Positions 8,331 to 37,031 of a stretch of 64,000 nucleotides of DNA are shown one piece after another. Under the pieces are notes generated by a model, which saw nothing but the letters and a program-made list of their open reading frames with translations, had not been told where the DNA came from and made no database searches. The translations under genes were made by a program, and so were the position numbers. Source of the DNA: Escherichia coli (lineage in GTDB: Bacteria; Pseudomonadota; Gammaproteobacteria; Enterobacterales; Enterobacteriaceae); the NCBI RefSeq assembly GCF_022846255.1, contig NZ_AP025682.1; one strand, 5' to 3'. Numbering within the stretch: the stretch's first letter is position 1; every line of letters starts with the position of its first letter.

Positions 8331-10364
8331 TTATTTCACCTGATGACCCGGTTTAGCACCAGCATCCGGACTTAGCAGGAAAATATCTTTCCCGCCAGGA
8401 CCGGCAGCCATCACCATGCCTTCGGAGATACCGAAGCGCATTTTACGTGGTGCCAGGTTAGCCACCATAATGGTGTGACGACCAATTAGTGCCTGCGGAT
8501 CCGGGTAAGCAGAACGAATGCCGGAGAAGACATTGCGTTTTTCACCGCCGAGATCCAGCGTCAGGCGCAGCAGTTTGTCAGAACCTTCAACAAACTCTGC
8601 GTTTTCGATCAGCGCCACGCGCAGGTCAACTTTGGCGAAGTCGTCAAAGGTGATGGTTTCCTGAATCGGATCATCTGCCAGTGGGCCAGTAACTGGCGCG
8701 GCAGCTGCTTTCACTTCTTCTTTAGACGCTTCCACCAGTGCTTCAACCTGCTTCATATCGATGCGGTTATACAGCGCTTTGAACGGATTCACTTTGTGGC
8801 CCAGCAGCGGTTGCTGGATACCATCCCAGGTCAGTTCTGTATTGAGGAATGCTTCTGCGCGCTCGGTCAGTTTCGGCAGTACCGGCTTCAGGTAAGTCAT
8901 CAGCACGCGGAACAGGTTTATGCCCATTGAGCAAATTGCCTGCAGGTCGGCATCGCGGCCTTCCTGTTTTGCCACCACCCACGGAGCCTGTTCATCGACA
9001 TAGCGGTTAGCCAGATCAGCCAGCGCCATGATTTCGCGTACTGCTTTACCAAATTCGCGGCTTTCCCACGCCTCACCAATCACTTCAGCGGCATCAGTGA
9101 AGGTTTTGTACAACTGCGGGTCAGCCAGTTCGCTTGCCAGCACGCCGTCAAAACGCTTGTTGATAAAGCCCGCATTACGAGAGGCCAGGTTAACCACTTT
9201 GTTAACGATATCGGCATTCACGCGCTGAACGAAATCTTCCAGGTTGAGATCGATATCATCAATGCGCGAAGAGAGTTTCGCAGTGTAGTAGTAACGCAGG
9301 CTGTCGGCGTCAAAATGATTCAGCCAGGTGCTGGCCTTAATAAAGGTACCGCGAGACTTAGACATCTTCGCGCCGTTCACCGTCACATAGCCATGAACAA
9401 ACAGGTTGGTCGGCTTGCGGAAGTTGCTGCCTTCCAGCATTGCTGGCCAGAACAGGCTGTGGAAGTAAACAATATCTTTACCGATGAAGTGGTACAGCTC
9501 GGCGGTGGAGTCTTTCTTCCAGTATTCATCGAAGCTTACGCTGTCGCCGCGCTTGTCGCACAGATTCTTGAAAGAACCCATATAGCCAATCGGCGCATCC
9601 AGCCAGACGTAGAAATATTTACCCGGCGCGTTCGGAATTTCAAAACCGAAGTACGGCGCGTCGCGGGAGATATCCCATTGTTGCAGGCCAGATTCAAACC
9701 ACTCCTGCATTTTGTTTGCCACCTGCTCCTGCAACGCACCGCTGCGGGTCCATGCCTGCAGCATTTCGCTGAAAGAGGGCAGATCAAAGAAGAAGTGTTC
9801 AGAATCACGCATTACCGGGGTAGCGCCAGAAACCACCGATTTCGGCTCGATCAGTTCAGTCGGGCTGTAGGTCGCGCCGCAGACTTCGCAGTTATCGCCG
9901 TATTGATCCGGGGATTTACATTTCGGGCAGGTGCCTTTTACAAAACGGTCCGGCAGGAACATGCCTTTTTCCGGATCGTACAGCTGAGAGATGGTGCGGT
10001 TTTTAATAAAACCGTTTTCTTTCAGGCGAGAGTAGATAAGTTCTGACAACTGGCGGTTCTCTTCGCTGTGCGTCGAGTGATAGTTGTCATAGCTGATGTT
10101 AAAGCCTGCGAAATCAGTCTGATGCTCCTGACTCATTTCGCCAATCATCTGCTCCGGAGTGATACCAAGCTGCTGAGCTTTCAACATGATTGGTGTACCG
10201 TGGGCATCGTCGGCGCAGATGAAGTTGACCTCGTGGCCGCGCATTCGCTGGTAACGGACCCAGACATCAGCCTGGATGTGCTCCAGCATATGGCCGAGGT
10301 GGATTGAGCCGTTAGCGTACGGCAGTGCGCACGTCACCAGAATTTTCTTCGCGACTTGAGTCAT
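8331..10364 (-). CDS. metG: methionyl-tRNA synthetase
   Basis: Translation begins [31 protein letters not shown] (class I HIGH motif) and contains KMSKS; 677 aa from the second in-frame ATG. Confidence 0.97.
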
Positions 10365-10495
10365 AGTAGGCATTACTTCTTAATAGTGAAAAGGGGTTAG
10401 ATAGTACCAAATGGGAAAATGTTAAGTAAGTACTTCTCTATATTCTTCAGGTAAACTATCAACTGATGGTTTATCTATACAAAAAAGGAGTCGGG

Positions 10496-11605
10496 ATGAA
10501 CGAACAATCCCAGGCCAAATCACCAGAAGCCTTGCGCGCAATGGTCGCCGGGACACTGGCCAATTTTCAGCACCCAACCCTGAAGCATAACCTCACAACG
10601 CTGAAAGCGTTGCACCATGTCGCCTGGATGGACGACACGCTGCATGTGGAACTGGTTATGCCATTCGTCTGGCATAGCGCGTTCGAAGAGTTAAAAGAGC
10701 AATGTAGCGCCGAACTGCTGCGCATCACCGGAGCGAAAGCTATCGACTGGAAACTGTCGCATAACATAGCCACTCTGAAACGCGTGAAGAATCAGCCGGG
10801 AATTAACGGCGTGAAGAACATTATCGCGGTCAGTTCCGGTAAAGGTGGCGTGGGTAAATCCTCCACGGCGGTAAACCTGGCGTTGGCACTGGCGGCGGAA
10901 GGGGCGAAAGTCGGCATTCTGGACGCCGATATCTACGGCCCATCAATCCCTACCATGCTGGGCGCAGAAAATCAGCGTCCAACTTCGCCGGACGGTACCC
11001 ATATGGCACCGATTATGTCTCATGGCCTGGCAACTAATTCAATTGGTTATCTGGTGACAGACGACAATGCGATGGTGTGGCGTGGCCCAATGGCGAGCAA
11101 GGCGTTAATGCAAATGTTGCAGGAAACCTTGTGGCCGGATCTCGACTATCTGGTGCTTGATATGCCGCCAGGTACCGGTGACATTCAATTGACATTGGCA
11201 CAAAACATTCCAGTAACCGGTGCAGTCGTGGTCACCACCCCGCAGGACATCGCGTTGATCGATGCGAAAAAAGGCATTGTGATGTTCGAGAAAGTCGAAG
11301 TTCCGGTGCTCGGTATTGTCGAGAACATGAGTGTGCATATTTGCAGTAACTGTGGTCACCATGAACCGATTTTCGGTACCGGTGGTGCAGAGAAACTGGC
11401 CGAGAAATACCACACGCAGCTGCTGGGGCAGATGCCGTTACACATCTCCTTACGTGAGGATCTCGATAAAGGCACGCCAACGGTTATCAGCCGTCCTGAG
11501 AGCGAATTTACCGCTATCTACCGCCAGCTGGCTGACCGCGTTGCAGCTCAGCTCTACTGGCAGGGTGAAGTCATTCCAGGCGAGATTTCCTTCCGCGCGG
11601 TCTGA
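10496..11605 (+). CDS. mrp: Fe-S cluster carrier ATPase Mrp/ApbC
   Basis: MNEQSQAKSPEALRAMVAG...; P-loop SGKGGVGKS; CxxC near C-terminus; AAGGAG 7 nt upstream of ATG 10496. Confidence 0.95.
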   Translation: MNEQSQAKSPEALRAMVAGTLANFQHPTLKHNLTTLKALHHVAWMDDTLHVELVMPFVWHSAFEELKEQCSAELLRITGAKAIDWKLSHNIATLKRVKNQPGINGVKNIIAVSSGKGGVGKSSTAVNLALALAAEGAKVGILDADIYGPSIPTMLGAENQRPTSPDGTHMAPIMSHGLATNSIGYLVTDDNAMVWRGPMASKALMQMLQETLWPDLDYLVLDMPPGTGDIQLTLAQNIPVTGAVVVTTPQDIALIDAKKGIVMFEKVEVPVLGIVENMSVHICSNCGHHEPIFGTGGAEKLAEKYHTQLLGQMPLHISLREDLDKGTPTVISRPESEFTAIYRQLADRVAAQLYWQGEVIPGEISFRAV

Positions 11606-18867: not shown

Positions 18868-19140
18868 ATGTCTCATACAATCCGTGATAAACAGAAACTG
18901 AAAGCGCGTGCCAGTAAGATTCAGGGCCAGGTCGTGGCGCTCAAGAAAATGCTCGACGAGCCGCACGAATGCGCTGCAGTTTTACAACAGATTGCTGCTA
19001 TCCGTGGCGCGGTGAACGGTCTGATGCGGGAAGTGATTAAAGGTCATCTGACGGAACACATCGTTCACCAGGGGGATGAGCTAAAACGTGAAGAAGATCT
19101 GGATGTCGTTCTGAAGGTGCTGGATTCATATATCAAATAA
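18868..19140 (+). CDS. rcnR: Ni/Co-responsive repressor RcnR (CsoR/RcnR family)
   Basis: 90 aa, [29 protein letters not shown]; divergent from rcnA. Confidence 0.95.
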
Positions 19141-19229
19141 TTTATTAACGCGATTGTAAAACTGCCGTTTTTCCTCGTTTACAACGCGTGCGCTGGACAT
19201 TACCATCCTCCTTTGCGATTTATCATCGC

Positions 19230-19360
19230 AACCAAACGACTCGGGGTGCCCTTCTGCGTGAAGGCTGAGAAATACCCGTATCACCTGATCTGGATAATGC
19301 CAGCGTAGGGAAGTCACGGACCACCAGGTCATTGCTTCTTCACGTTATGGCAGGAGCAAA
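19230..19360 (+). promoter_or_regulatory. TPP (thiamine pyrophosphate) riboswitch in the thiM leader
   Basis: CGACTCGGGGTGCCCTTCTGCGTGAAGGCTGAGAAATACCCGTATCACCTGATCTGGATAATGCCAGCGTAGGGAAGTCACGG matches the thiM aptamer (thi-box CUGAGA ... ACCUGAUCUGGAUAAUGCCAGCGUAGGGAA); the AGGAG SD just before the ATG is sequestered by the expression platform. Confidence 0.9.
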
Positions 19361-19362
19361 CT

Positions 19363-20151
19363 ATGCAAGTCGACCTGCTGAGTTCAGCGCAATCTGCGCA
19401 CGCGTTACACCTTTTTCACCAACATTCCCCTCTTGTGCACTGTATGACCAACGATGTGGTGCAAACCTTTACTGCCAATACCTTGCTGGCGCTCGGTGCA
19501 TCGCCAGCGATGGTTATCGAAACCGAAGAAGCCAGTCAGTTTGCGGCTATCGCCAGTGCGTTGCTGATTAACGTTGGCACACTGACGCAGCCACGAGCGC
19601 AAGCGATGAGTGCTGCCGTTGAGCAAGCAACACGATCACAAACGCCCTGGACGCTTGATCCGGTTGCGGTTGGTGCGCTCGATTATCGCCGCCGTTTTTG
19701 TGTGGAACTTCTGTCCCATAAGCCAACCGCCATACGTGGTAATGCTTCGGAAATCATGGCATTAGCTGGCGTTGCTAATGGTGGACGGGGAGTGGATACC
19801 ACTGATGCCGCAGCTAACGCGATACCCGCTGCACAAACACTGGCACGGGAAACTGGCGCAATCGTCGTGGTCACTGGCGAGGTGGATTATGTTACCGATG
19901 GACATCGTATCATTGGCATTCACGGTGGCGATCCGTTAATGACCAAAGTGGTAGGAACTGGCTGTGCACTATCGGCGGTTGTCGCTGCCTGTTGTGCGCT
20001 ACCAGGCGATACGCTGGAAAATATCGCATCTGCCTGTCACTGGATGAAACAAGCCGGAGAACGCGCAGTCGCCAGAAGCGAGGGGCCAGGTAGTTTTGTT
20101 CCACATTTCCTTGATGCGCTCTGGCAATTGGCGCAGGAGGTGCAGGCATGA
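19363..20151 (+). CDS. thiM: hydroxyethylthiazole kinase
   Basis: 262 aa; downstream of the TPP riboswitch; 4-bp overlap with thiD. Confidence 0.95.
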
Positions 20152-20948
20152 AACGAATTAACGCTCTGACGATTGCCGGTACTGATCCGAGTGGTGGTGC
20201 GGGGATTCAGGCCGATCTTAAAACCTTCTCGGCACTTGGCGCTTATGGTTGCTCAGTGATTACTGCACTAGTGGCGCAAAATACCCGTGGCGTACAGTCG
20301 GTGTATCGCATTGAGCTTGATTTTGTCGCCGCCCAGCTCGATTCGGTGTTCAGCGATGTGCGAATCGACACCACTAAAATCGGTATGTTGGCGGAAACCG
20401 ATATTGTTGAAGCGGTGGCAGAACGGTTGCAACGTTATCAGATCCAAAACGTGGTACTCGACACCGTTATGCTGGCAAAAAGCGGCGACCCGCTGCTTTC
20501 ACCTTCGGCAGTTGCCACGCTACGCAGTCGATTATTGCCACAGGTTTCATTAATAACGCCAAACTTGCCCGAAGCAGCCGCCTTGCTCGACGCGCCACAC
20601 GCGCGCACCGAACAGGAAATGCTGGAACAAGGGCGATCGCTGTTGGCGATGGGCTGTGGCGCAGTGCTAATGAAAGGTGGTCATCTGGATGATGAGCAAA
20701 GCCCGGACTGGCTGTTTACCCGCGAGGGTGAACAACGGTTTACCGCACAGCGCATTATGACCAAAAACACTCACGGCACTGGTTGTACGCTCTCTGCGGC
20801 GTTGGCTGCACTGCGCCCGCGCCATACAAACTGGGCTGACACCGTACAGGAGGCAAAAAGCTGGCTTTCATCGGCGTTAGCCCAGGCCGACACGCTGGAA
20901 GTTGGTCACGGTATTGGTCCGGTTCACCACTTCCACGCCTGGTGGTGA
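20148..20948 (+). CDS. thiD: hydroxymethylpyrimidine / phosphomethylpyrimidine kinase
   Basis: 266 aa, [34 protein letters not shown] (PfkB-like ThiD signature). Confidence 0.95.
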
Positions 20949-21003
20949 GCACCGTACTATAGCTGCTTTGGTTATTGTCAGCCTTTGGCACTGACATTCA
21001 GGG

Positions 21004-21834
21004 ATGAAACCAATGCAGCTAAGAATCACCAGTCGAAAAAAACTCATCGCTTTATTATGCGCTCTTGGGCTAATATCCATCGTTGCGATTCATCCGCGTC
21101 AGACGGTGAATTTTTTCTATTCGACAGCAGTTCAGATTAAAGACTACATCCACTTCTACGGTTATCGCCCGGTTAAATCTTTCGCTATTCGCATTCCTGC
21201 CAGTTACACCATTCACGGAATAGATGTTTCGCGCTGGCAGGAACGGATCGACTGGCAGCGGGTGGCAAAAATGCGCGATAACGGTATTCGCTTACAATTT
21301 GCCTTTATTAAGGCGACGGAAGGCGAAAAGCTGGTGGACCCCTATTTTTCGCGTAACTGGCAACTAAGCCGCGAAAATGGCCTGCTGCGCGGGGCGTATC
21401 ATTATTTTTCCCCGTCGGTATCCGCTTCAGTTCAGGCGCGATTATTTCTGCAAACGGTGGATTTCTCACAAGGCGATTTCCCTGCGGTACTGGACGTAGA
21501 AGAGCGAGGAAAATTATCGGCAAAAGAATTACGCAAGCGGGTAAGTCAGTGGCTAAAAATGGTCGAAAAACGTACGGGAAAAAAGCCAATTATTTACTCA
21601 GGAGCCGTTTTTTATCACACCAATCTGGCGGGCTATTTCAATGAATATCCGTGGTGGGTGGCTCACTATTATCAACGTCGCCCGGACAATGACGGCATGG
21701 CCTGGCGCTTCTGGCAGCATTCCGACCGTGGGCAGGTCGATGGCATTAATGGTCCGGTGGATTTTAATGTGTTTAATGGCACAGAGGAGGAGTTGAGGGA
21801 TTCGTTGATGGGATTAAAGAAACGCCTTAAATAA
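21004..21834 (+). CDS. yegX: GH25-family muramidase-like protein YegX with N-terminal membrane anchor
   Basis: N-terminal hydrophobic segment LIALLCALGLISIVAI; GIDVSRWQ / FAFIKATEG motifs typical of GH25 lysozymes; start could be 21004 or 21013. Confidence 0.85.
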   Translation: MKPMQLRITSRKKLIALLCALGLISIVAIHPRQTVNFFYSTAVQIKDYIHFYGYRPVKSFAIRIPASYTIHGIDVSRWQERIDWQRVAKMRDNGIRLQFAFIKATEGEKLVDPYFSRNWQLSRENGLLRGAYHYFSPSVSASVQARLFLQTVDFSQGDFPAVLDVEERGKLSAKELRKRVSQWLKMVEKRTGKKPIIYSGAVFYHTNLAGYFNEYPWWVAHYYQRRPDNDGMAWRFWQHSDRGQVDGINGPVDFNVFNGTEEELRDSLMGLKKRLK

Positions 21835-21881
21835 GAAGCAGTGATATACTCCTACCAGACTCCCCGGCAGGAAAAAGACAA

Positions 21882-22628
21882 ATGGAACAAGCGCATACCC
21901 AGCTGATTGCCCAACTGAACGAGCGTATTTTAGCGGCGGATAACACGCCGCTTTATATTAAGTTTGCCGAAACGGTAAAAAATGCCGTGCGCAACGGGGT
22001 GCTGGAGCATGGCAATATTTTGCCCGGTGAGCGTGATTTAAGTCAGTTAACCGGCGTTTCGCGCATTACGGTGCGCAAGGCGATGCAGGCGCTGGAAGAA
22101 GAGGGCGTGGTGACGCGTTCGCGTGGTTACGGCACGCAGATCAACAACATCTTCGAATACTCGTTGAAAGAAGCGCGAGGTTTTTCTCAGCAGGTGGTAT
22201 TGCGCGGGAAAAAGCCCGATACGCTATGGGTTAACAAGCGTGTCGTGAAATGTCCCGAAGAAGTCGCGCAGCAGCTGGCGGTCGAAGCAGGAAGTAATGT
22301 CTTTTTGCTTAAGCGTATTCGCTATGTCGATGAAGAGGCGGTATCGATTGAGGAATCGTGGGTTCCGGCGCATTTAATTCATGATGTTGATGCCATCGGA
22401 ATTTCTCTTTATGACTACTTCCGCAGCCAGCACATTTACCCACAACGTACGCGTTCCCGCGTTAGCGCCCGGATGCCGGATGCCGAGTTTCAGTCACATA
22501 TTCAGTTAGATAGCAAAGTACCGGTGCTGGTGATCAAGCAAGTGGCGCTTGACCAACAGCAACGGCCTATTGAGTACAGCATCAGCCACTGTCGCAGCGA
22601 TCTATACGTTTTTGTGTGCGAGGAGTAG
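21882..22628 (+). CDS. yegW: GntR/HutC-family transcriptional regulator YegW
   Basis: 248 aa; N-terminal GntR HTH (LPGERDLSQLTGVSRITVRKAMQALEEEGVV) plus UTRA-like C-terminus. Confidence 0.9.
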   Translation: MEQAHTQLIAQLNERILAADNTPLYIKFAETVKNAVRNGVLEHGNILPGERDLSQLTGVSRITVRKAMQALEEEGVVTRSRGYGTQINNIFEYSLKEARGFSQQVVLRGKKPDTLWVNKRVVKCPEEVAQQLAVEAGSNVFLLKRIRYVDEEAVSIEESWVPAHLIHDVDAIGISLYDYFRSQHIYPQRTRSRVSARMPDAEFQSHIQLDSKVPVLVIKQVALDQQQRPIEYSISHCRSDLYVFVCEE

Positions 22629-23567
22629 TTCCTCGCGCGTTGGCGCACAATCACCGCCCCGATGCCCGACAACCCACGACGCCACTGCATTGCCCAGTAA
22701 TACGGCATCCGCCAGTGGCAGACCAGAGGCCAGCCCGGCAAGTACGCCGCCGGCATGACTGTCGCCCGCCCCAATGGTGTCTACAACTTGCGTTGGAAAT
22801 GCCGGAATGCAGCCAGAAGCGTCGTTGCTGAAATACCATGCGCCCTCTTTATCGAGACGAACGATCAACGGCGCGGCAAATTTCTCCTGCCATTGCTTGC
22901 CTAGTGTTGTTATCTCTGCGGATAGAGCAAAACGTTCGGCGGCAATCTCAGCCTCCTGACGATTGAGTGATACTAAAGGTCGACAGGCCATGATCCGCGC
23001 CAGTAATGCATCCTGGATATCGCCAATACGTGGGCCAAAATCGATAAACGGCGTCACGTCTTGCAGCTTTTCCAGCCATTCCACTAACAATTCGCCGCAG
23101 GGCGAGGCCAGTTGATAACCGGAAAAATAGAGCAGGCTGCCAGGTGCAACGGTTAATCGCGCCAACCATTGGCGATTCCACTGATTTTCCACACCGCTGA
23201 ATGACATAAAAGTGCGTTCGCCATCAGGCTCAACCAGCGCCAGACACCAGCCGTTATCATCTTCGGCGTTATCGATCAGGCTGATTAAGTCCTCTTTTGC
23301 CATCCGGTTGCGAATAATCTCCGCCCACACCCCCTGACCGAGCGGCAAGGCATTACCCGCTTCGATGCCGAGGCGCTTTAATGCCACGGCAATATTCAGT
23401 GCACAGCCGCCAACGTTAACGCTCTGCTGTTTCAGTTCGATATCGCACCCACGCCAGGGGAGGGCATAAGCGTCGGCGATCACATCAATGACCGCCGCGC
23501 CGACGACCATCACCGGCTGACGCGTGGTTAATTCAGGCAGCAGCGTGTGTAATCGAGCGCTGCTCAT
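22602..23567 (-). CDS. yegV: PfkB-family sugar/nucleoside kinase YegV
   Basis: 321 aa; C-terminal DTIGAGDSHAGG PfkB signature; 4-bp overlap with yegU. Confidence 0.9.
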   Translation of the reverse strand: MSSARLHTLLPELTTRQPVMVVGAAVIDVIADAYALPWRGCDIELKQQSVNVGGCALNIAVALKRLGIEAGNALPLGQGVWAEIIRNRMAKEDLISLIDNAEDDNGWCLALVEPDGERTFMSFSGVENQWNRQWLARLTVAPGSLLYFSGYQLASPCGELLVEWLEKLQDVTPFIDFGPRIGDIQDALLARIMACRPLVSLNRQEAEIAAERFALSAEITTLGKQWQEKFAAPLIVRLDKEGAWYFSNDASGCIPAFPTQVVDTIGAGDSHAGGVLAGLASGLPLADAVLLGNAVASWVVGHRGGDCAPTREELLLAHKNV

Positions 23568-35023: not shown

Positions 35024-35341
35024 ATGAAAAAGATAGCTGCTATATCATTAATTAGTGTTTTTCTTATGTCTGGTTGTGCTGTGCATAATGATGAGACAAG
35101 TATCGGTAAATTTGGCCTTGCATATAAAAGTAATATTCAGCGTAAACTCGATAACCAATACTACACCGAAGCCGAAGCTTCTTTAGCCAGGGGCAGAATT
35201 TCTGGTGCAGAAAATATAGTAAAAAATGATGCAGCTCATTTCTGTGTTACTCAGGGAAAAAAAATGCAGATAGTTGACCTGAAGACAGAAGGTGCAGGAT
35301 TACATGGCGTCGCTCGTCTGACATTCAAATGTGGAGAGTGA
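35024..35341 (+). CDS. yegR: small lipoprotein YegR
   Basis: 105 aa from MKKIAAISLISVFLMSGC (lipobox LMSGC); SD GGAAGG upstream; the 125-aa track ORF is an extension. Confidence 0.8.
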   Translation: MKKIAAISLISVFLMSGCAVHNDETSIGKFGLAYKSNIQRKLDNQYYTEAEASLARGRISGAENIVKNDAAHFCVTQGKKMQIVDLKTEGAGLHGVARLTFKCGE

Positions 35342-35498
35342 GAATATTTTTTGGTAAGCGTCAAACATGCGCGTTCTGGCTGTGCGTAACCGGAACCTGT
35401 GCGAGCACGATGCCAATAAGTGAAAGGCATCGTGCTATGAGGGGAGATTCTATCGATGTGGTCAATGGAAGACGGTTACCAGGATACGGCTTATGCAT

Positions 35499-35585
35499 AA
35501 AAAATAAGCCCGTGTAAGGGAGATTACACAGGCTAAGGAGGTGGTTCCTGGTACAGCTAGCATTTTATGGGTTATGTTTTTCAGC
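35499..35585 (-). ncRNA. cyaR: CyaR (RyeE) Hfq-dependent sRNA
   Basis: Minus strand reads GCTGAAAAACATAACCCATAAAATGCTAGCTGTACCAGGAACCACCTCCTTAGCCTGTGTAATCTCCCTTACACGGGCTTATTTTTT, matching CyaR including the terminator hairpin and U-tract. Confidence 0.85.
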
Positions 35586-35669
35586 GAAACGGATGATAAC
35601 CTTAATAAATGCAGCTGTATGTGATCGGTTTCTAAGAATTTTCCATCCGGGAAAAATAATCGAAATTAA

Positions 35670-37031
35670 TCACTTACCGTGGGGGTTACGCGTGGTTTCC
35701 CCGGAGAAATTACGCATCAGCAGCGCGTAATTTAGCTCAAGATCCTGCGGCACCGGGATCCACACAGTATAACCATCGCCCGGTGCGACCGGCATTGCTT
35801 CGCCTTTGGCGTTTTCCATATGCTCAAGGGTAAAGTTAATGTTCCCTTGCGGCGTCATCAGCTCAAGGCTGTCGCCAACGGAGAATTTATTTTTCACCGC
35901 TACCGCCGCGAGGTCGCCCTTGCGCTCACCGGTAAACTCACCAACAAACTGCTGGCGGTCAGAAACTGAATAACCGTATTCGTAGTTCTGATAATCGTCG
36001 TGAGTATGACGACGCAGGAAACCTTCGGTATAGCCACGATGCGCCAGACCTTCCAGAGTTTCCAGCAGGCTGGTATCGAACGGTTTGCCCGCAGCGGCAT
36101 CATCGATAGCTTTACGGTAAACCTGCGCGGTGCGTGCGCAATAGTAGAAAGATTTGGTACGACCTTCGATTTTCAGCGAATGCACGCCCATTTTGGTCAG
36201 GCGTTCTACATGGGCGATGGCGCGCAGATCTTTCGAGTTCATGATGTAAGTGCCGTGCTCATCTTCAAACGCGGTCATATACTCGCCCGGACGCTGGGCT
36301 TCTTCGATCATAAACACTTTGTCGGTTGGCGCGCCGATACCCAGCGTCGGCTCAACATTTTGCACCGGAATCGGCTCGTACTTGTGTACGATGTTGCCAA
36401 CGTCATCTTCTTTCCCTTCCTGGACGTTGTACTCCCAGCGGCAGGCGTTGGTGCAGGTACCCTGGTTCGGGTCGCGCTTGTTGATATAGCCAGAGAGCAG
36501 GCAGCGACCGGAGTAGGCCATGCACAGCGCGCCGTGAACGAAGATCTCGATCTCCATATCCGGCACCTGATTGCGGATCTCTTCAATCTCTTCCAGCGAC
36601 AGCTCGCGAGAGAGGATCACGCGGGTCAGTCCCATTTGCTGCCAGAATTTCACCGTCGCCCAGTTCACGGCGTTAGCCTGTACCGAGAGATGGATCGGCA
36701 TTTCAGGGAAGTGCTCGCGCACCAGCATAATCAGCCCCGGATCGGACATAATCAGCGCATCCGGCCCCATTTCCACCACCGGTTTCAGGTCACGGATAAA
36801 GGTTTTCAGCTTGGCGTTGTGCGGTGCAATGTTGACCACAACATAAAACTTTTTCCCCAGCGCGTGGGCTTCATTGATGCCGAGCTGAAGATTTTCGTGG
36901 TTGAATTCGTTGTTGCGCACACGCAGGGAGTAACGCGGCTGGCCCGCATAAACAGCATCTGCGCCATAAGCGAAAGCGTAACGCATATTTTTCAGCGTTC
37001 CCGCCGGGGAAAGGAGTTCCGGTTTAAACAT
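35670..37031 (-). CDS. yegQ: U32-family protein YegQ/TrhP (tRNA U34 hydroxylation)
   Basis: 453 aa, MFKPELLSPAGTLKNMRYAFAYGADAVYAG (U32 family). Confidence 0.93.
   Translation of the reverse strand: MFKPELLSPAGTLKNMRYAFAYGADAVYAGQPRYSLRVRNNEFNHENLQLGINEAHALGKKFYVVVNIAPHNAKLKTFIRDLKPVVEMGPDALIMSDPGLIMLVREHFPEMPIHLSVQANAVNWATVKFWQQMGLTRVILSRELSLEEIEEIRNQVPDMEIEIFVHGALCMAYSGRCLLSGYINKRDPNQGTCTNACRWEYNVQEGKEDDVGNIVHKYEPIPVQNVEPTLGIGAPTDKVFMIEEAQRPGEYMTAFEDEHGTYIMNSKDLRAIAHVERLTKMGVHSLKIEGRTKSFYYCARTAQVYRKAIDDAAAGKPFDTSLLETLEGLAHRGYTEGFLRRHTHDDYQNYEYGYSVSDRQQFVGEFTGERKGDLAAVAVKNKFSVGDSLELMTPQGNINFTLEHMENAKGEAMPVAPGDGYTVWIPVPQDLELNYALLMRNFSGETTRNPHGK

Follow-up and report, generated by a model that had tools for sequence, protein, structure and literature searches.

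The window analysed here is a stretch of 64,000 nucleotides of Escherichia coli DNA, whose plus strand carries, in this order, thiD (20148-20948), yegX, and yegW (21882-22628). The ORF list places a frame of 276 codons between the two outer genes, running from an ATG at 21004 to a stop codon at 21832-21834. This frame is yegX (b2102), an already annotated core gene of E. coli; the gene and its assignment to glycoside hydrolase family 25 (GH25) are both in databases and hence known. The original prediction had called the gene yegX and placed it next to thiD, and both points agree with the syntenic RefSeq and K-12 annotation and with the position of thiD directly upstream. Its interval of 21004-21834 corresponds to a real open reading frame, but the start does not hold, as RefSeq and K-12 use the second ATG, at 21013. 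The resulting coding sequence (21013-21834) specifies 273 amino acids plus the stop codon, whereas translation from the alternative ATG, 9 nt further upstream, would yield 276 amino acids. The lone Shine-Dalgarno-like sequence, AGGGA (21000-21004), abuts and overlaps the first ATG and lies 8 nt ahead of the second. In K-12, the same gene (NP_416605.2, "putative glycosyl hydrolase YegX") occupies the identical position between thiD and yegW (ggaR), and the two copies share approximately 98% nucleotide identity, with about six amino acid differences before residue 260.

Upstream of yegX, thiM (19363-20151) and thiD, which together span 19363-20948, encode the thiamine-salvage kinases. The thiM leader contains a TPP riboswitch aptamer at 19232-19328, which we propose as the upstream control of the transcript reaching yegX. 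The aptamer scored 71.2 bits with Rfam RF00059 (gathering score 54.3; E = 1e-12) and is also annotated in the syntenic RefSeq record. On the other side, yegW encodes GgaR, a GntR-type repressor of yegTUV and a neighbour with no functional tie to yegX; in ChIP-chip, GgaR had one target only, the fbaB/yegT spacer (PMC10819704).

The yegX gene was present between thiD and yegW in 5424 of 5426 complete E. coli genomes, and was also found in E. albertii, E. whittamii, E. fergusonii, and Salmonella enterica subsp. indica and salamae. Its dN/dS ratio was 0.06-0.13. These data support yegX as a chromosomal, species-core gene under purifying selection, and it was probably inherited vertically as a core gene of the genus Escherichia. 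The contig scan with a single protein query requires exact peptide words and did not detect the orthologues of Salmonella and E. fergusonii, which were found otherwise, so its silence on other enterobacteria cannot be taken as evidence that yegX is absent from them. Of 36 papers containing the string yegX, most do so by accident, in DOIs or protein motifs; 11 concern E. coli, with no study dedicated to the gene and no enzymatic, localisation, or transcript-mapping data among them. Weak hits in two drug screens of the Keio collection were the sole yegX phenotypes found.

As originally predicted, YegX belongs to the GH25 enzymes. The protein matched the complete Pfam profile PF01183, Glyco_hydro_25 (positions 1-180 of 180; E = 7.9e-55; 186.4 bits against a cut-off of 27), which is far above chance, and the catalytic domain covers residues 70-245 of the 273-residue protein (21220-21747, plus strand). 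The catalytic residues are present and invariant in 33 homologues. They comprise Asp71 of the GIDVS motif (codon 21223-21225), the N-terminal active-site aspartate; Asp161-Val-Glu163 (21493-21501), the GH25 DXE catalytic motif; and Asp250 in VDFNVF (21760-21762), the C-terminal active-site aspartate. Asp71 aligned with the corresponding Asp of 2wag and 4kru, and Asp161-Val-Glu163 aligned with the D-I-E of 4kru, the structure in which D101 and E103 have been named as catalytic (PMC7954357). Sequence searches of the PDB matched 2wag (best, 1e-33), 4kru, and 1jfx. The AlphaFold model of YegX, which is a prediction and not a solved structure, had a pLDDT of 88, and GH25 enzymes made up the whole of its top 20 matches in a Foldseek search against the PDB, where the highest target-normalised TM-score was 0.84; the closest structures scored 0.80-0.84 at an rmsd of 2.2-2.6 Å. 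No NCBIfam model matched YegX, and there is therefore no finer curated subfamily name for it. Judged by its alignments and its modelled fold, YegX is a GH25-family (Chalaropsis-type) protein with intact catalytic residues. Because the set of Asp71, Asp161-x-Glu163, and Asp250 is intact, hydrolysis of the MurNAc-beta-1,4-GlcNAc bond in the glycan strands of peptidoglycan is the most likely activity predicted. Such an enzyme would be a true lysozyme, in contrast to the lytic transglycosylases that dominate the glycan-cleaving repertoire of E. coli.

Solved GH25 muramidases include BaGH25c of Bacillus anthracis (2wag), cellosyl of Streptomyces (1jfx), Psm of the Clostridium perfringens phage phiSM101 (4kru/4krt), and Cpl-1 (2ixv). 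The four solved enzymes closest to YegX share 29-34% identity with it in the catalytic domain, with TM-scores of 0.80-0.84. The solved muramidases are either secreted or are endolysins with wall-binding modules (SH3, choline-binding repeats), and most of them belong to Gram-positive systems. In contrast, YegX combines an N-terminal membrane anchor with a family-specific linker, has no wall-binding module, and is encoded in a Gram-negative core genome.

The N-terminal hydrophobic anchor claimed in the original prediction was recovered as one strongly hydrophobic helix, LIALLCALGLISIVAI (residues 11-26; 21043-21090, plus strand), which follows the basic tail MQLRITSRKK. The helix has a mean Kyte-Doolittle value of 2.99 and a Gly/Ala/Ser/Thr content of 31%, and the AlphaFold model shows a helix at residues 8-26. 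According to the alignment, the basic tail and the single hydrophobic helix are kept throughout the YegX family. The family-specific linker that follows (21094-21198, plus strand) contains, in the alignments and the model, a helix at residues 28-48, two short strands, and the motif Y..VKSF(A/G)IRIP. The helix is a predicted signal-anchor, and from this arrangement we infer a topology with the N-terminus inside and the catalytic domain in the periplasm. YegX would then be a bitopic inner-membrane protein consisting of a short basic cytoplasmic tail, the signal-anchor helix, a linker of approximately 40 residues, and a periplasmic GH25 barrel. Since the tether is short, the enzyme would be expected to encounter strands close to the inner membrane, either nascent or released, and not the mature sacculus. 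A similar placement is known for MltG (YceG), the inner-membrane-anchored glycan-strand terminase of E. coli, which has a single N-terminal transmembrane helix and a periplasmic glycan-cleaving domain near the inner membrane. Unlike YegX, MltG has a different fold and is a lytic transglycosylase that forms 1,6-anhydro-MurNAc; the two proteins have no sequence relationship, and the analogy is one of placement only.

The closest relatives of YegX outside the enterobacteria are chromosomal genes of Bacteroidota with the same anchor-linker-GH25 layout. Proteins from Solitalea, Pedobacter, Anseongella, Pontibacter, and Chitinophagales show this three-part architecture, with the junction Y..VKSFGIRIP..Y.VHGIDVS and 44-56% identity to YegX over 80-97% of the length. 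Their genes lie in non-phage contexts among unrelated neighbours. They differ from YegX in having longer, more basic cytoplasmic tails and no thiMD neighbourhood. As these homologues are likewise uncharacterised, they add no functional information.

The distance between thiD and the yegX start codon is 64 nt (20949-21012). RNA folding predicted a long-range helix in which the 5' arm TAGCTGCTTTGG (20960-20971) pairs with the 3' arm CCAATGCAGCTA (21010-21021). The start codon of yegX (21013-21015) is part of the 3' arm, and the two arms enclose an inner hairpin (20976-20996) as well as the AGGGA sequence. The predicted fold had an energy of -30.7 kcal/mol (z = -2.7), and 0 of 200 shuffled sequences were as stable. 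Compensatory changes were seen at 2 pairs of the inner hairpin among 8 Escherichia lineages. Both arms of the start-codon helix were invariant in all 8 sequences, so covariation is not assessable there, and promoter or coding constraints account for the conservation of the arms equally well. A terminator scan of 20949-21012 gave no terminator-like site between thiD and yegX. Across 19100-22800, the counts of terminator and promoter sites were not above those of shuffled sequence, and the terminator-like sites, which fell only inside yegX or yegW, were treated as chance. By the operon criteria of a common strand, a 64-nt spacer, and a spacer free of terminator-like sites, yegX groups with thiD. 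E. fergusonii keeps thiD and yegX adjacent, and Salmonella preserves a relic of this arrangement.

The literature and RefSeq describe the operon as thiMD only. The thiM riboswitch reduces the mRNA of the whole downstream operon via Rho (PMC5499598), and the Northern blots in that study used probes for thiM and thiD only. Published RNA-seq data from three EHEC strains (PMC6729007) include yegX, with log2 fold changes of -3.75, -6.42, and -3.80; the values for thiD in the same strains were -3.74, -5.56, and -4.09. The drop in yegX was thus 13- to 86-fold across the three strains, tracking thiD and thiM. The thiM gene was also significantly changed, and yegW, yegV, and rcnR were missing from the lists of significant genes. 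These values come from one study that compared a complex plant (lettuce) medium with M9, and the contrast is therefore not a pure thiamine shift; the supplements of a ground-beef EHEC study held no thi or yegX data. Given that the spacer has no terminator-like site and that yegX tracks thiD and thiM while yegW is unchanged, yegX behaves as a third thiMD gene. The description of yegX as a stand-alone gene is consequently doubtful: it looks like the distal gene of the TPP-riboswitch thiMD operon, a co-transcription that we infer from the spacer and the RNA-seq data. The yegX mRNA would most likely arise from the thiM promoter by read-through, and little YegX would be made in rich, thiamine-replete media, with induction in minimal medium that lacks thiamine.

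In Salmonella, yegX lies upstream of the intact riboswitch, behind a degenerate leader relic only, so thiamine control is not conserved there. A second riboswitch upstream of Salmonella yegX was considered and rejected. Rfam reported nothing in this region (7350-8050 of locus L003), even at E <= 1, and the alignment showed no more than a degenerate copy of the leader's 3' half (from thiM), joined to a remnant of the 3' end of thiD.

Two alternatives concern how yegX is transcribed and how YegX is processed. With the enzyme unchanged, yegX may form a transcription unit of its own, driven by a promoter in the spacer, its fall together with the thi genes being coincidental or indirect. A constitutive sigma-70 (RpoD) promoter has been listed between thiD and yegX by genomic SELEX (PMC3946193), which means that yegX may also have its own promoter, and a conserved TACTAT at 20955-20960 is a possible -10 element; the description of thiMD as a two-gene operon in databases and in the riboswitch literature points the same way. 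However, the consensus scan gave no promoter-like site in the spacer, and inspection of the sequence shows that the candidate -35 is a poor one. The absence of a terminator-like site after thiD and the fold changes, in which yegX mirrors thiD strain by strain in all three strains with yegW unchanged, also argue against an independent unit, which we regard as rather unlikely. To the same degree we doubt that the YegX helix is a cleavable Sec signal peptide and the mature enzyme a soluble, untethered periplasmic lysozyme. The segment does have a basic n-region, a hydrophobic core, and, in E. coli, I-V-A directly ahead of His27-Pro28 as a possible cleavage motif, and E. fergusonii has V-I-A at the matching place. 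The motif nevertheless varies, being F-V-A in Salmonella, and no such site occurs in the Bacteroidota homologues. The 16-residue hydrophobic core moreover reaches the putative site without a polar c-region, and many relatives carry Lys/Arg-rich N-tails of 30-45 residues, which are typical of type II signal anchors. We therefore favour the anchored form.

Three further alternatives concern what kind of protein YegX is. GH25-like proteins without lysozyme activity exist, and one of them, Rv2525c, was among the weaker fold matches, so the GH25 fold of YegX could serve a non-peptidoglycan substrate or be catalytically silent. This is improbable, as YegX has lost none of the four acidic residues of the active site, matches the complete Pfam profile, and resembles the proven muramidases (2wag, cellosyl, and Psm; identity 29-34%, TM-scores 0.80-0.84) far more closely than Rv2525c (12-14% and 0.55-0.61). 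GH25 is also common as an endolysin domain, and yegX might be a domesticated or remnant endolysin from a decayed prophage, possibly of the signal-arrest-release (SAR) type. PHROGs endolysin families matched the catalytic part of YegX, relatives are encoded in 189 phage records, approximately 13 kb downstream there is a small P2 remnant (ogr region; about 35180-36911), and the G+C content of yegX is 47.7%, compared with 55% in thiM and thiD. Yet the best phage match in tblastn was 45.5% identical and covered residues 54-261 only, most matches came from phages of Gram-positive hosts, and a coverage of 80% or more of the protein was reached by only 1 of the 189 records, whose identity was 31%. 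The anchor and linker are shared with the chromosomal Bacteroidota genes and not with phage proteins. In a heuristic comparison, the YegX helix (Kyte-Doolittle 2.5-3.0; Gly/Ala/Ser/Thr 25-38%) is strongly hydrophobic next to two SAR domains (about 1.9-2.0 and 55-65%). The original prediction had placed the gene outside a prophage, with no holin, terminase, or integrase nearby, and this agrees with what we found: the syntenic RefSeq records list none of the three within 8-12 kb, yegX has rcnRAB, thiMD, yegW, and yegVUT as its neighbours, and neither phage DNA nor a lysis-cassette gene was detected within approximately 12 kb on either side. A megablast search of 8600-33500 against 50,697 phage records returned only host genes carried in phage records. 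Together with the core status of yegX in the genus and its purifying selection, these results support the conclusion that yegX is not phage-derived, and an endolysin origin is very improbable. A defensive function, which had also been suggested, found no backing: YegX had no family match in PADLOC-DB at E <= 0.01, and the match of yegW was at chance level only. YegX might trigger lysis in abortive infection or act as an antibacterial effector in competition, and a lysozyme of the cell's own could in principle drive altruistic lysis, but the neighbours serve thiamine salvage, nickel efflux, and nucleoside or sugar functions and include neither an immunity gene nor a secretion system or toxin marker, and yegX is core and syntenic, outside any variable island. 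The defence reading was accordingly dropped, and we consider it extremely improbable. A putative housekeeping role for YegX is plausible.

Our joint explanation is that yegX is a vertically inherited core gene for a membrane-anchored periplasmic GH25 lysozyme, its mRNA arising by read-through from thiM; we assign this a probability of about 0.7. A more specific version, in which YegX is the only true hydrolytic GH25 lysozyme of E. coli and yegX is the third thiMD gene, translationally coupled to thiD via the helix that buries the start codon (20960-20971/21010-21021) and induced specifically by thiamine limitation, is tentative, and we rate its chance as somewhat below even.

YegX is among the remaining uncharacterised core gene products of E. 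coli, a predicted lysozyme in which no catalytic feature is missing. Eight lytic transglycosylases plus DigH (YddW) are counted in current work on glycan-strand cleavage in E. coli, and the recent literature found on these glycan-cleaving enzymes did not overlap with the E. coli literature that mentions yegX. DigH is, as predicted for YegX, a hydrolytic enzyme for peptidoglycan glycan strands and not a lytic transglycosylase (PMC12288456). It belongs to a different protein family, acts on denuded glycans, is described as accumulating at midcell in dividing cells, and has been shown to function in cell separation. An active YegX would mean that the current set of E. coli enzymes cutting the glycan backbone is incomplete. 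Induction of YegX under thiamine limitation, if it occurs, could explain why cell-wall studies in rich media overlooked it. Should yegX be under the thiM riboswitch, its phenotype would have to be sought in thiamine-free minimal medium and not in LB, and the riboswitch would control a gene unrelated to the pathway of its ligand through operon position alone.

The yegX copy in this window also differs from that of K-12 at its 3' end. A single base pair, at about 21796, is deleted in this window alone, so that the C-terminal tail (21793-21831, plus strand) is out of its usual frame and the last 12 codons are changed; in the DNA alignment, the protein ends in ...EELRDSLMGLKKRLK here and in ...EELQAFVDGIKETP in K-12. 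The segment 21760-21860 without the extra base matched 0 of 5419 E. coli genomes. According to the protein alignment, the deletion falls beyond the last conserved column of the family.

An uninterrupted ORF of 276 codons lies on the plus strand at 21004-21834, and its DNA is that of the E. coli gene yegX (b2102). A 1.2-kb query centred on the gene matched 5424 of 5426 complete E. coli genomes, where yegX is almost always single-copy and chromosomal; RefSeq labels the matches 'yegX: glycoside hydrolase family 25 protein', with thiD on one side and yegW on the other. The window runs yehA, rcnB, rcnA, rcnR, TPP riboswitch, thiM, thiD, yegX, and yegW, followed by yegV-yegU-yegT in convergent orientation, an order collinear with that of K-12 MG1655. 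The original prediction of a GH25 ORF beside thiD, with an anchor and no prophage, was confirmed; neither the gene nor its family assignment is new, so novelty is low. RefSeq and K-12 start yegX at the second ATG (21013), giving 273 aa in the window, and AGGGA (21000-21004), the only Shine-Dalgarno-like element, overlaps the first ATG and lies 8 nt before the second. YegX residues were therefore counted from 21013. The nearest E. coli relative for this region, strain LR-28 (L001 4255-6218), carries three additional small genes in the interval from rcnR to the thiM riboswitch; they encode an outer membrane protein, a hypothetical protein, and an HTH-like protein and are missing in the window (19141-19231) and K-12. 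Hypothetical genes at this variable spot also appear in an EHEC pan-genome table.

YegX matched the full Pfam profile PF01183 (Glyco_hydro_25; E = 7.9e-55, 186 bits, cut-off 27), as the original prediction had anticipated, and no NCBIfam model was applicable. The nearest solved structures by sequence were GH25 muramidases: 2wag of B. anthracis (E = 1e-33), 4kru/4krt from a C. perfringens phage, and 1jfx, the Streptomyces cellosyl. An AlphaFold model built on 33 homologues had a mean pLDDT of 88, and all of its top 20 Foldseek matches in the PDB were GH25 enzymes (closest target-normalised TM-scores 0.80-0.84). The GH25 DXE motif is D161-V-E163 in YegX and aligns with D-I-E of 4kru, whose catalytic pair has been named as D101 and E103 (PMC7954357). 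D71 and D250 are likewise kept, and each of these four residues is invariant across the 33-sequence alignment. The proposed family membership was therefore largely right, with both the profile match and the catalytic residues present.

The N-terminus consists of a basic decapeptide, MQLRITSRKK, and a 16-residue hydrophobic core (mean Kyte-Doolittle 2.99). In the model, helices at 8-26 and 28-48 are followed by two short strands ahead of the barrel, which carry a conserved Y..VKSF(A/G)IRIP motif. Because many relatives have a lysine/arginine-rich tail of 30-45 residues ahead of the helix, and no conserved signal-peptidase motif was seen among them, we read the helix as a putative type II signal anchor that would leave the catalytic domain in the periplasm; the predicted anchor thus largely holds. 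The same helix may instead be a cleavable signal peptide, with an I-V-A site before His27. On the reading we favour, YegX would be a membrane-tethered periplasmic muramidase hydrolysing MurNAc-GlcNAc bonds, and its short tether suggests action on strands near the inner membrane.

The description of yegX as a stand-alone gene is probably wrong. The spacer between the thiD stop and the yegX start is just 64 nt long and contains no terminator-like site. [quoted passage not shown] Through the thiM riboswitch, mRNA is lowered across the entire operon downstream: once TPP has blocked translation of thiM, Rho terminates transcription at +231 to +262 (PMC5499598). Only thiM and thiD are assigned to the operon in that study and in the databases. 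Most simply, yegX would be a distal gene of the thiMD transcript, repressed by thiamine through its position, with the caveat that co-regulation comes from one study in a complex medium (PMC6729007). YegX would then be expressed mainly when thiamine is scarce. A genomic SELEX survey records a constitutive sigma-70 promoter between thiD and yegX (PMC3946193), so yegX may have transcription of its own.

The spacer RNA was predicted to fold at -30.7 kcal/mol (z = -2.7; 0 of 200 shuffles as stable), pairing TAGCTGC-U-UUGG (20960-20971) with CCAA-U-GCAGCUA (21010-21021) and burying the AUG at 21013. The 5' arm starts 12 nt past the thiD stop codon, where a terminating ribosome could open the helix over the yegX start, which suggests, as a hypothesis only, that yegX is translationally coupled to thiD. 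Neither arm varies among eight Escherichia lineages, although synonymous coding sites are near saturation between the most distant of these; with no variation in the arms, covariation cannot test the helix. The inner hairpin (20976-20996) shows compensatory changes in two pairs. An equally good explanation of the arm conservation would be a candidate promoter -10 element (TACTAT, 20955-20960) combined with constraint on the coding sequence.

Syntenic RefSeq genomes have no annotated holin, spanin, terminase, or integrase within 8-12 kb of yegX, and all that megablast of 8600-33500 matched among 50,697 phage records was host genes present in phage or phage-plasmid entries. The best phage protein match to YegX was 45.5% identical over residues 54-261 only, and most matches were to phages of Gram-positive hosts, indicating that the predicted non-phage origin was largely right. 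The suggested defensive role was unsupported, and no PADLOC model matched YegX. The nearest phage-like DNA, a P2 ogr remnant at ~35180-36911, lies ~13 kb downstream, past the yeg, fbaB, and gat genes; this P2-type remnant is a 97% match to 'Phage TP' ogr and a putative protease. A P2-like record, vB_EcoM-720R8, ends in the adjoining gatR/yegS/yegR region, suggesting a P2 attachment site nearby. Separately, metG-mrp(apbC) at 8600-11600 shares ~90% identity across 3 kb with several Escherichia phage records of ~108 kb (PhiR41_1, Cyrano, and CMS-2020a). Their annotations include a methionyl-tRNA synthetase and a MinD-like protein, so large phages or phage-plasmids carry host-like metG and mrp.

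The literature yielded no study devoted to YegX genetics and none on its biochemistry or localisation; the sole phenotypes were weak hits in two Keio collection screens, with boric acid and epetraborole. The neighbouring regulator GgaR (YegW) binds only the fbaB/yegT spacer (PMC10819704). Recent papers retrieved on how E. coli cleaves glycan strands concern lytic transglycosylases and DigH, and none was among the few papers mentioning yegX. The remaining interest is that a core, intact lysozyme-type enzyme is apparently under riboswitch-linked control.

Other Escherichia lineages, including E. albertii and E. whittamii, have orthologues in the same position; in E. fergusonii yegX again follows thiM-thiD, with different downstream genes. 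Some S. enterica isolates, including subsp. indica and subsp. salamae, have an orthologue at 68% identity. In these Salmonella lineages (contig L003 7600-9135, Logan ERR304822) it lies between rcnB and thiM, with intact riboswitch-thiM-thiD downstream and no rcnA or rcnR at this locus, and is preceded by the 3' half of the thiM leader in degenerate form, joined to a thiD 3'-end relic. This relic marks the thiD-yegX junction as ancestral and rearranged later, and the Salmonella layout means that function does not require the linkage. Pairwise dN/dS was 0.06-0.13 over codons 1-258 from E. coli through Salmonella, and YegX is under purifying selection. The G+C content of the gene (47.7% versus 55% for thiM and thiD) is slightly unusual and would fit an acquisition long ago. 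Compared with K-12 and LR-28, yegX in the window lacks one base near 21796 (TTG-AGGG here, TTGCAGGC there), so the last 12 codons (21793-21831) are in another frame, past the last conserved family residue. None of 5419 complete E. coli genomes matched 21760-21860 without the extra base; the deletion is either a private allele or an assembly error. Shortened or frameshifted products of 185-241 aa occur in Shigella flexneri, S. sonnei, and a minority of E. coli records (P0012, P0021, and others), which in Shigella fits gene decay.

The closest relatives outside enterobacteria are chromosomal Bacteroidota genes (among them those of Solitalea, Pedobacter, Anseongella, Pontibacter, and Chitinophagales) with the full anchor-linker-GH25 layout of YegX and 44-56% identity, adjoining unrelated genes with no phage context. 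An M20 peptidase gene lies directly upstream of a GH25 gene in two distant loci (L016 533-5861 of Solitalea lacus and L004 6461-8855 of another bacterium), possibly a weak functional link to peptide trimming. Solitalea has two GH25 paralogues within 3 kb. Finally, a 275-bp contig of a 'Bacillus sanguinis' assembly (L015) codes for a peptide 94% identical to residues 1-64 of E. coli YegX and is almost certainly E. coli contamination.
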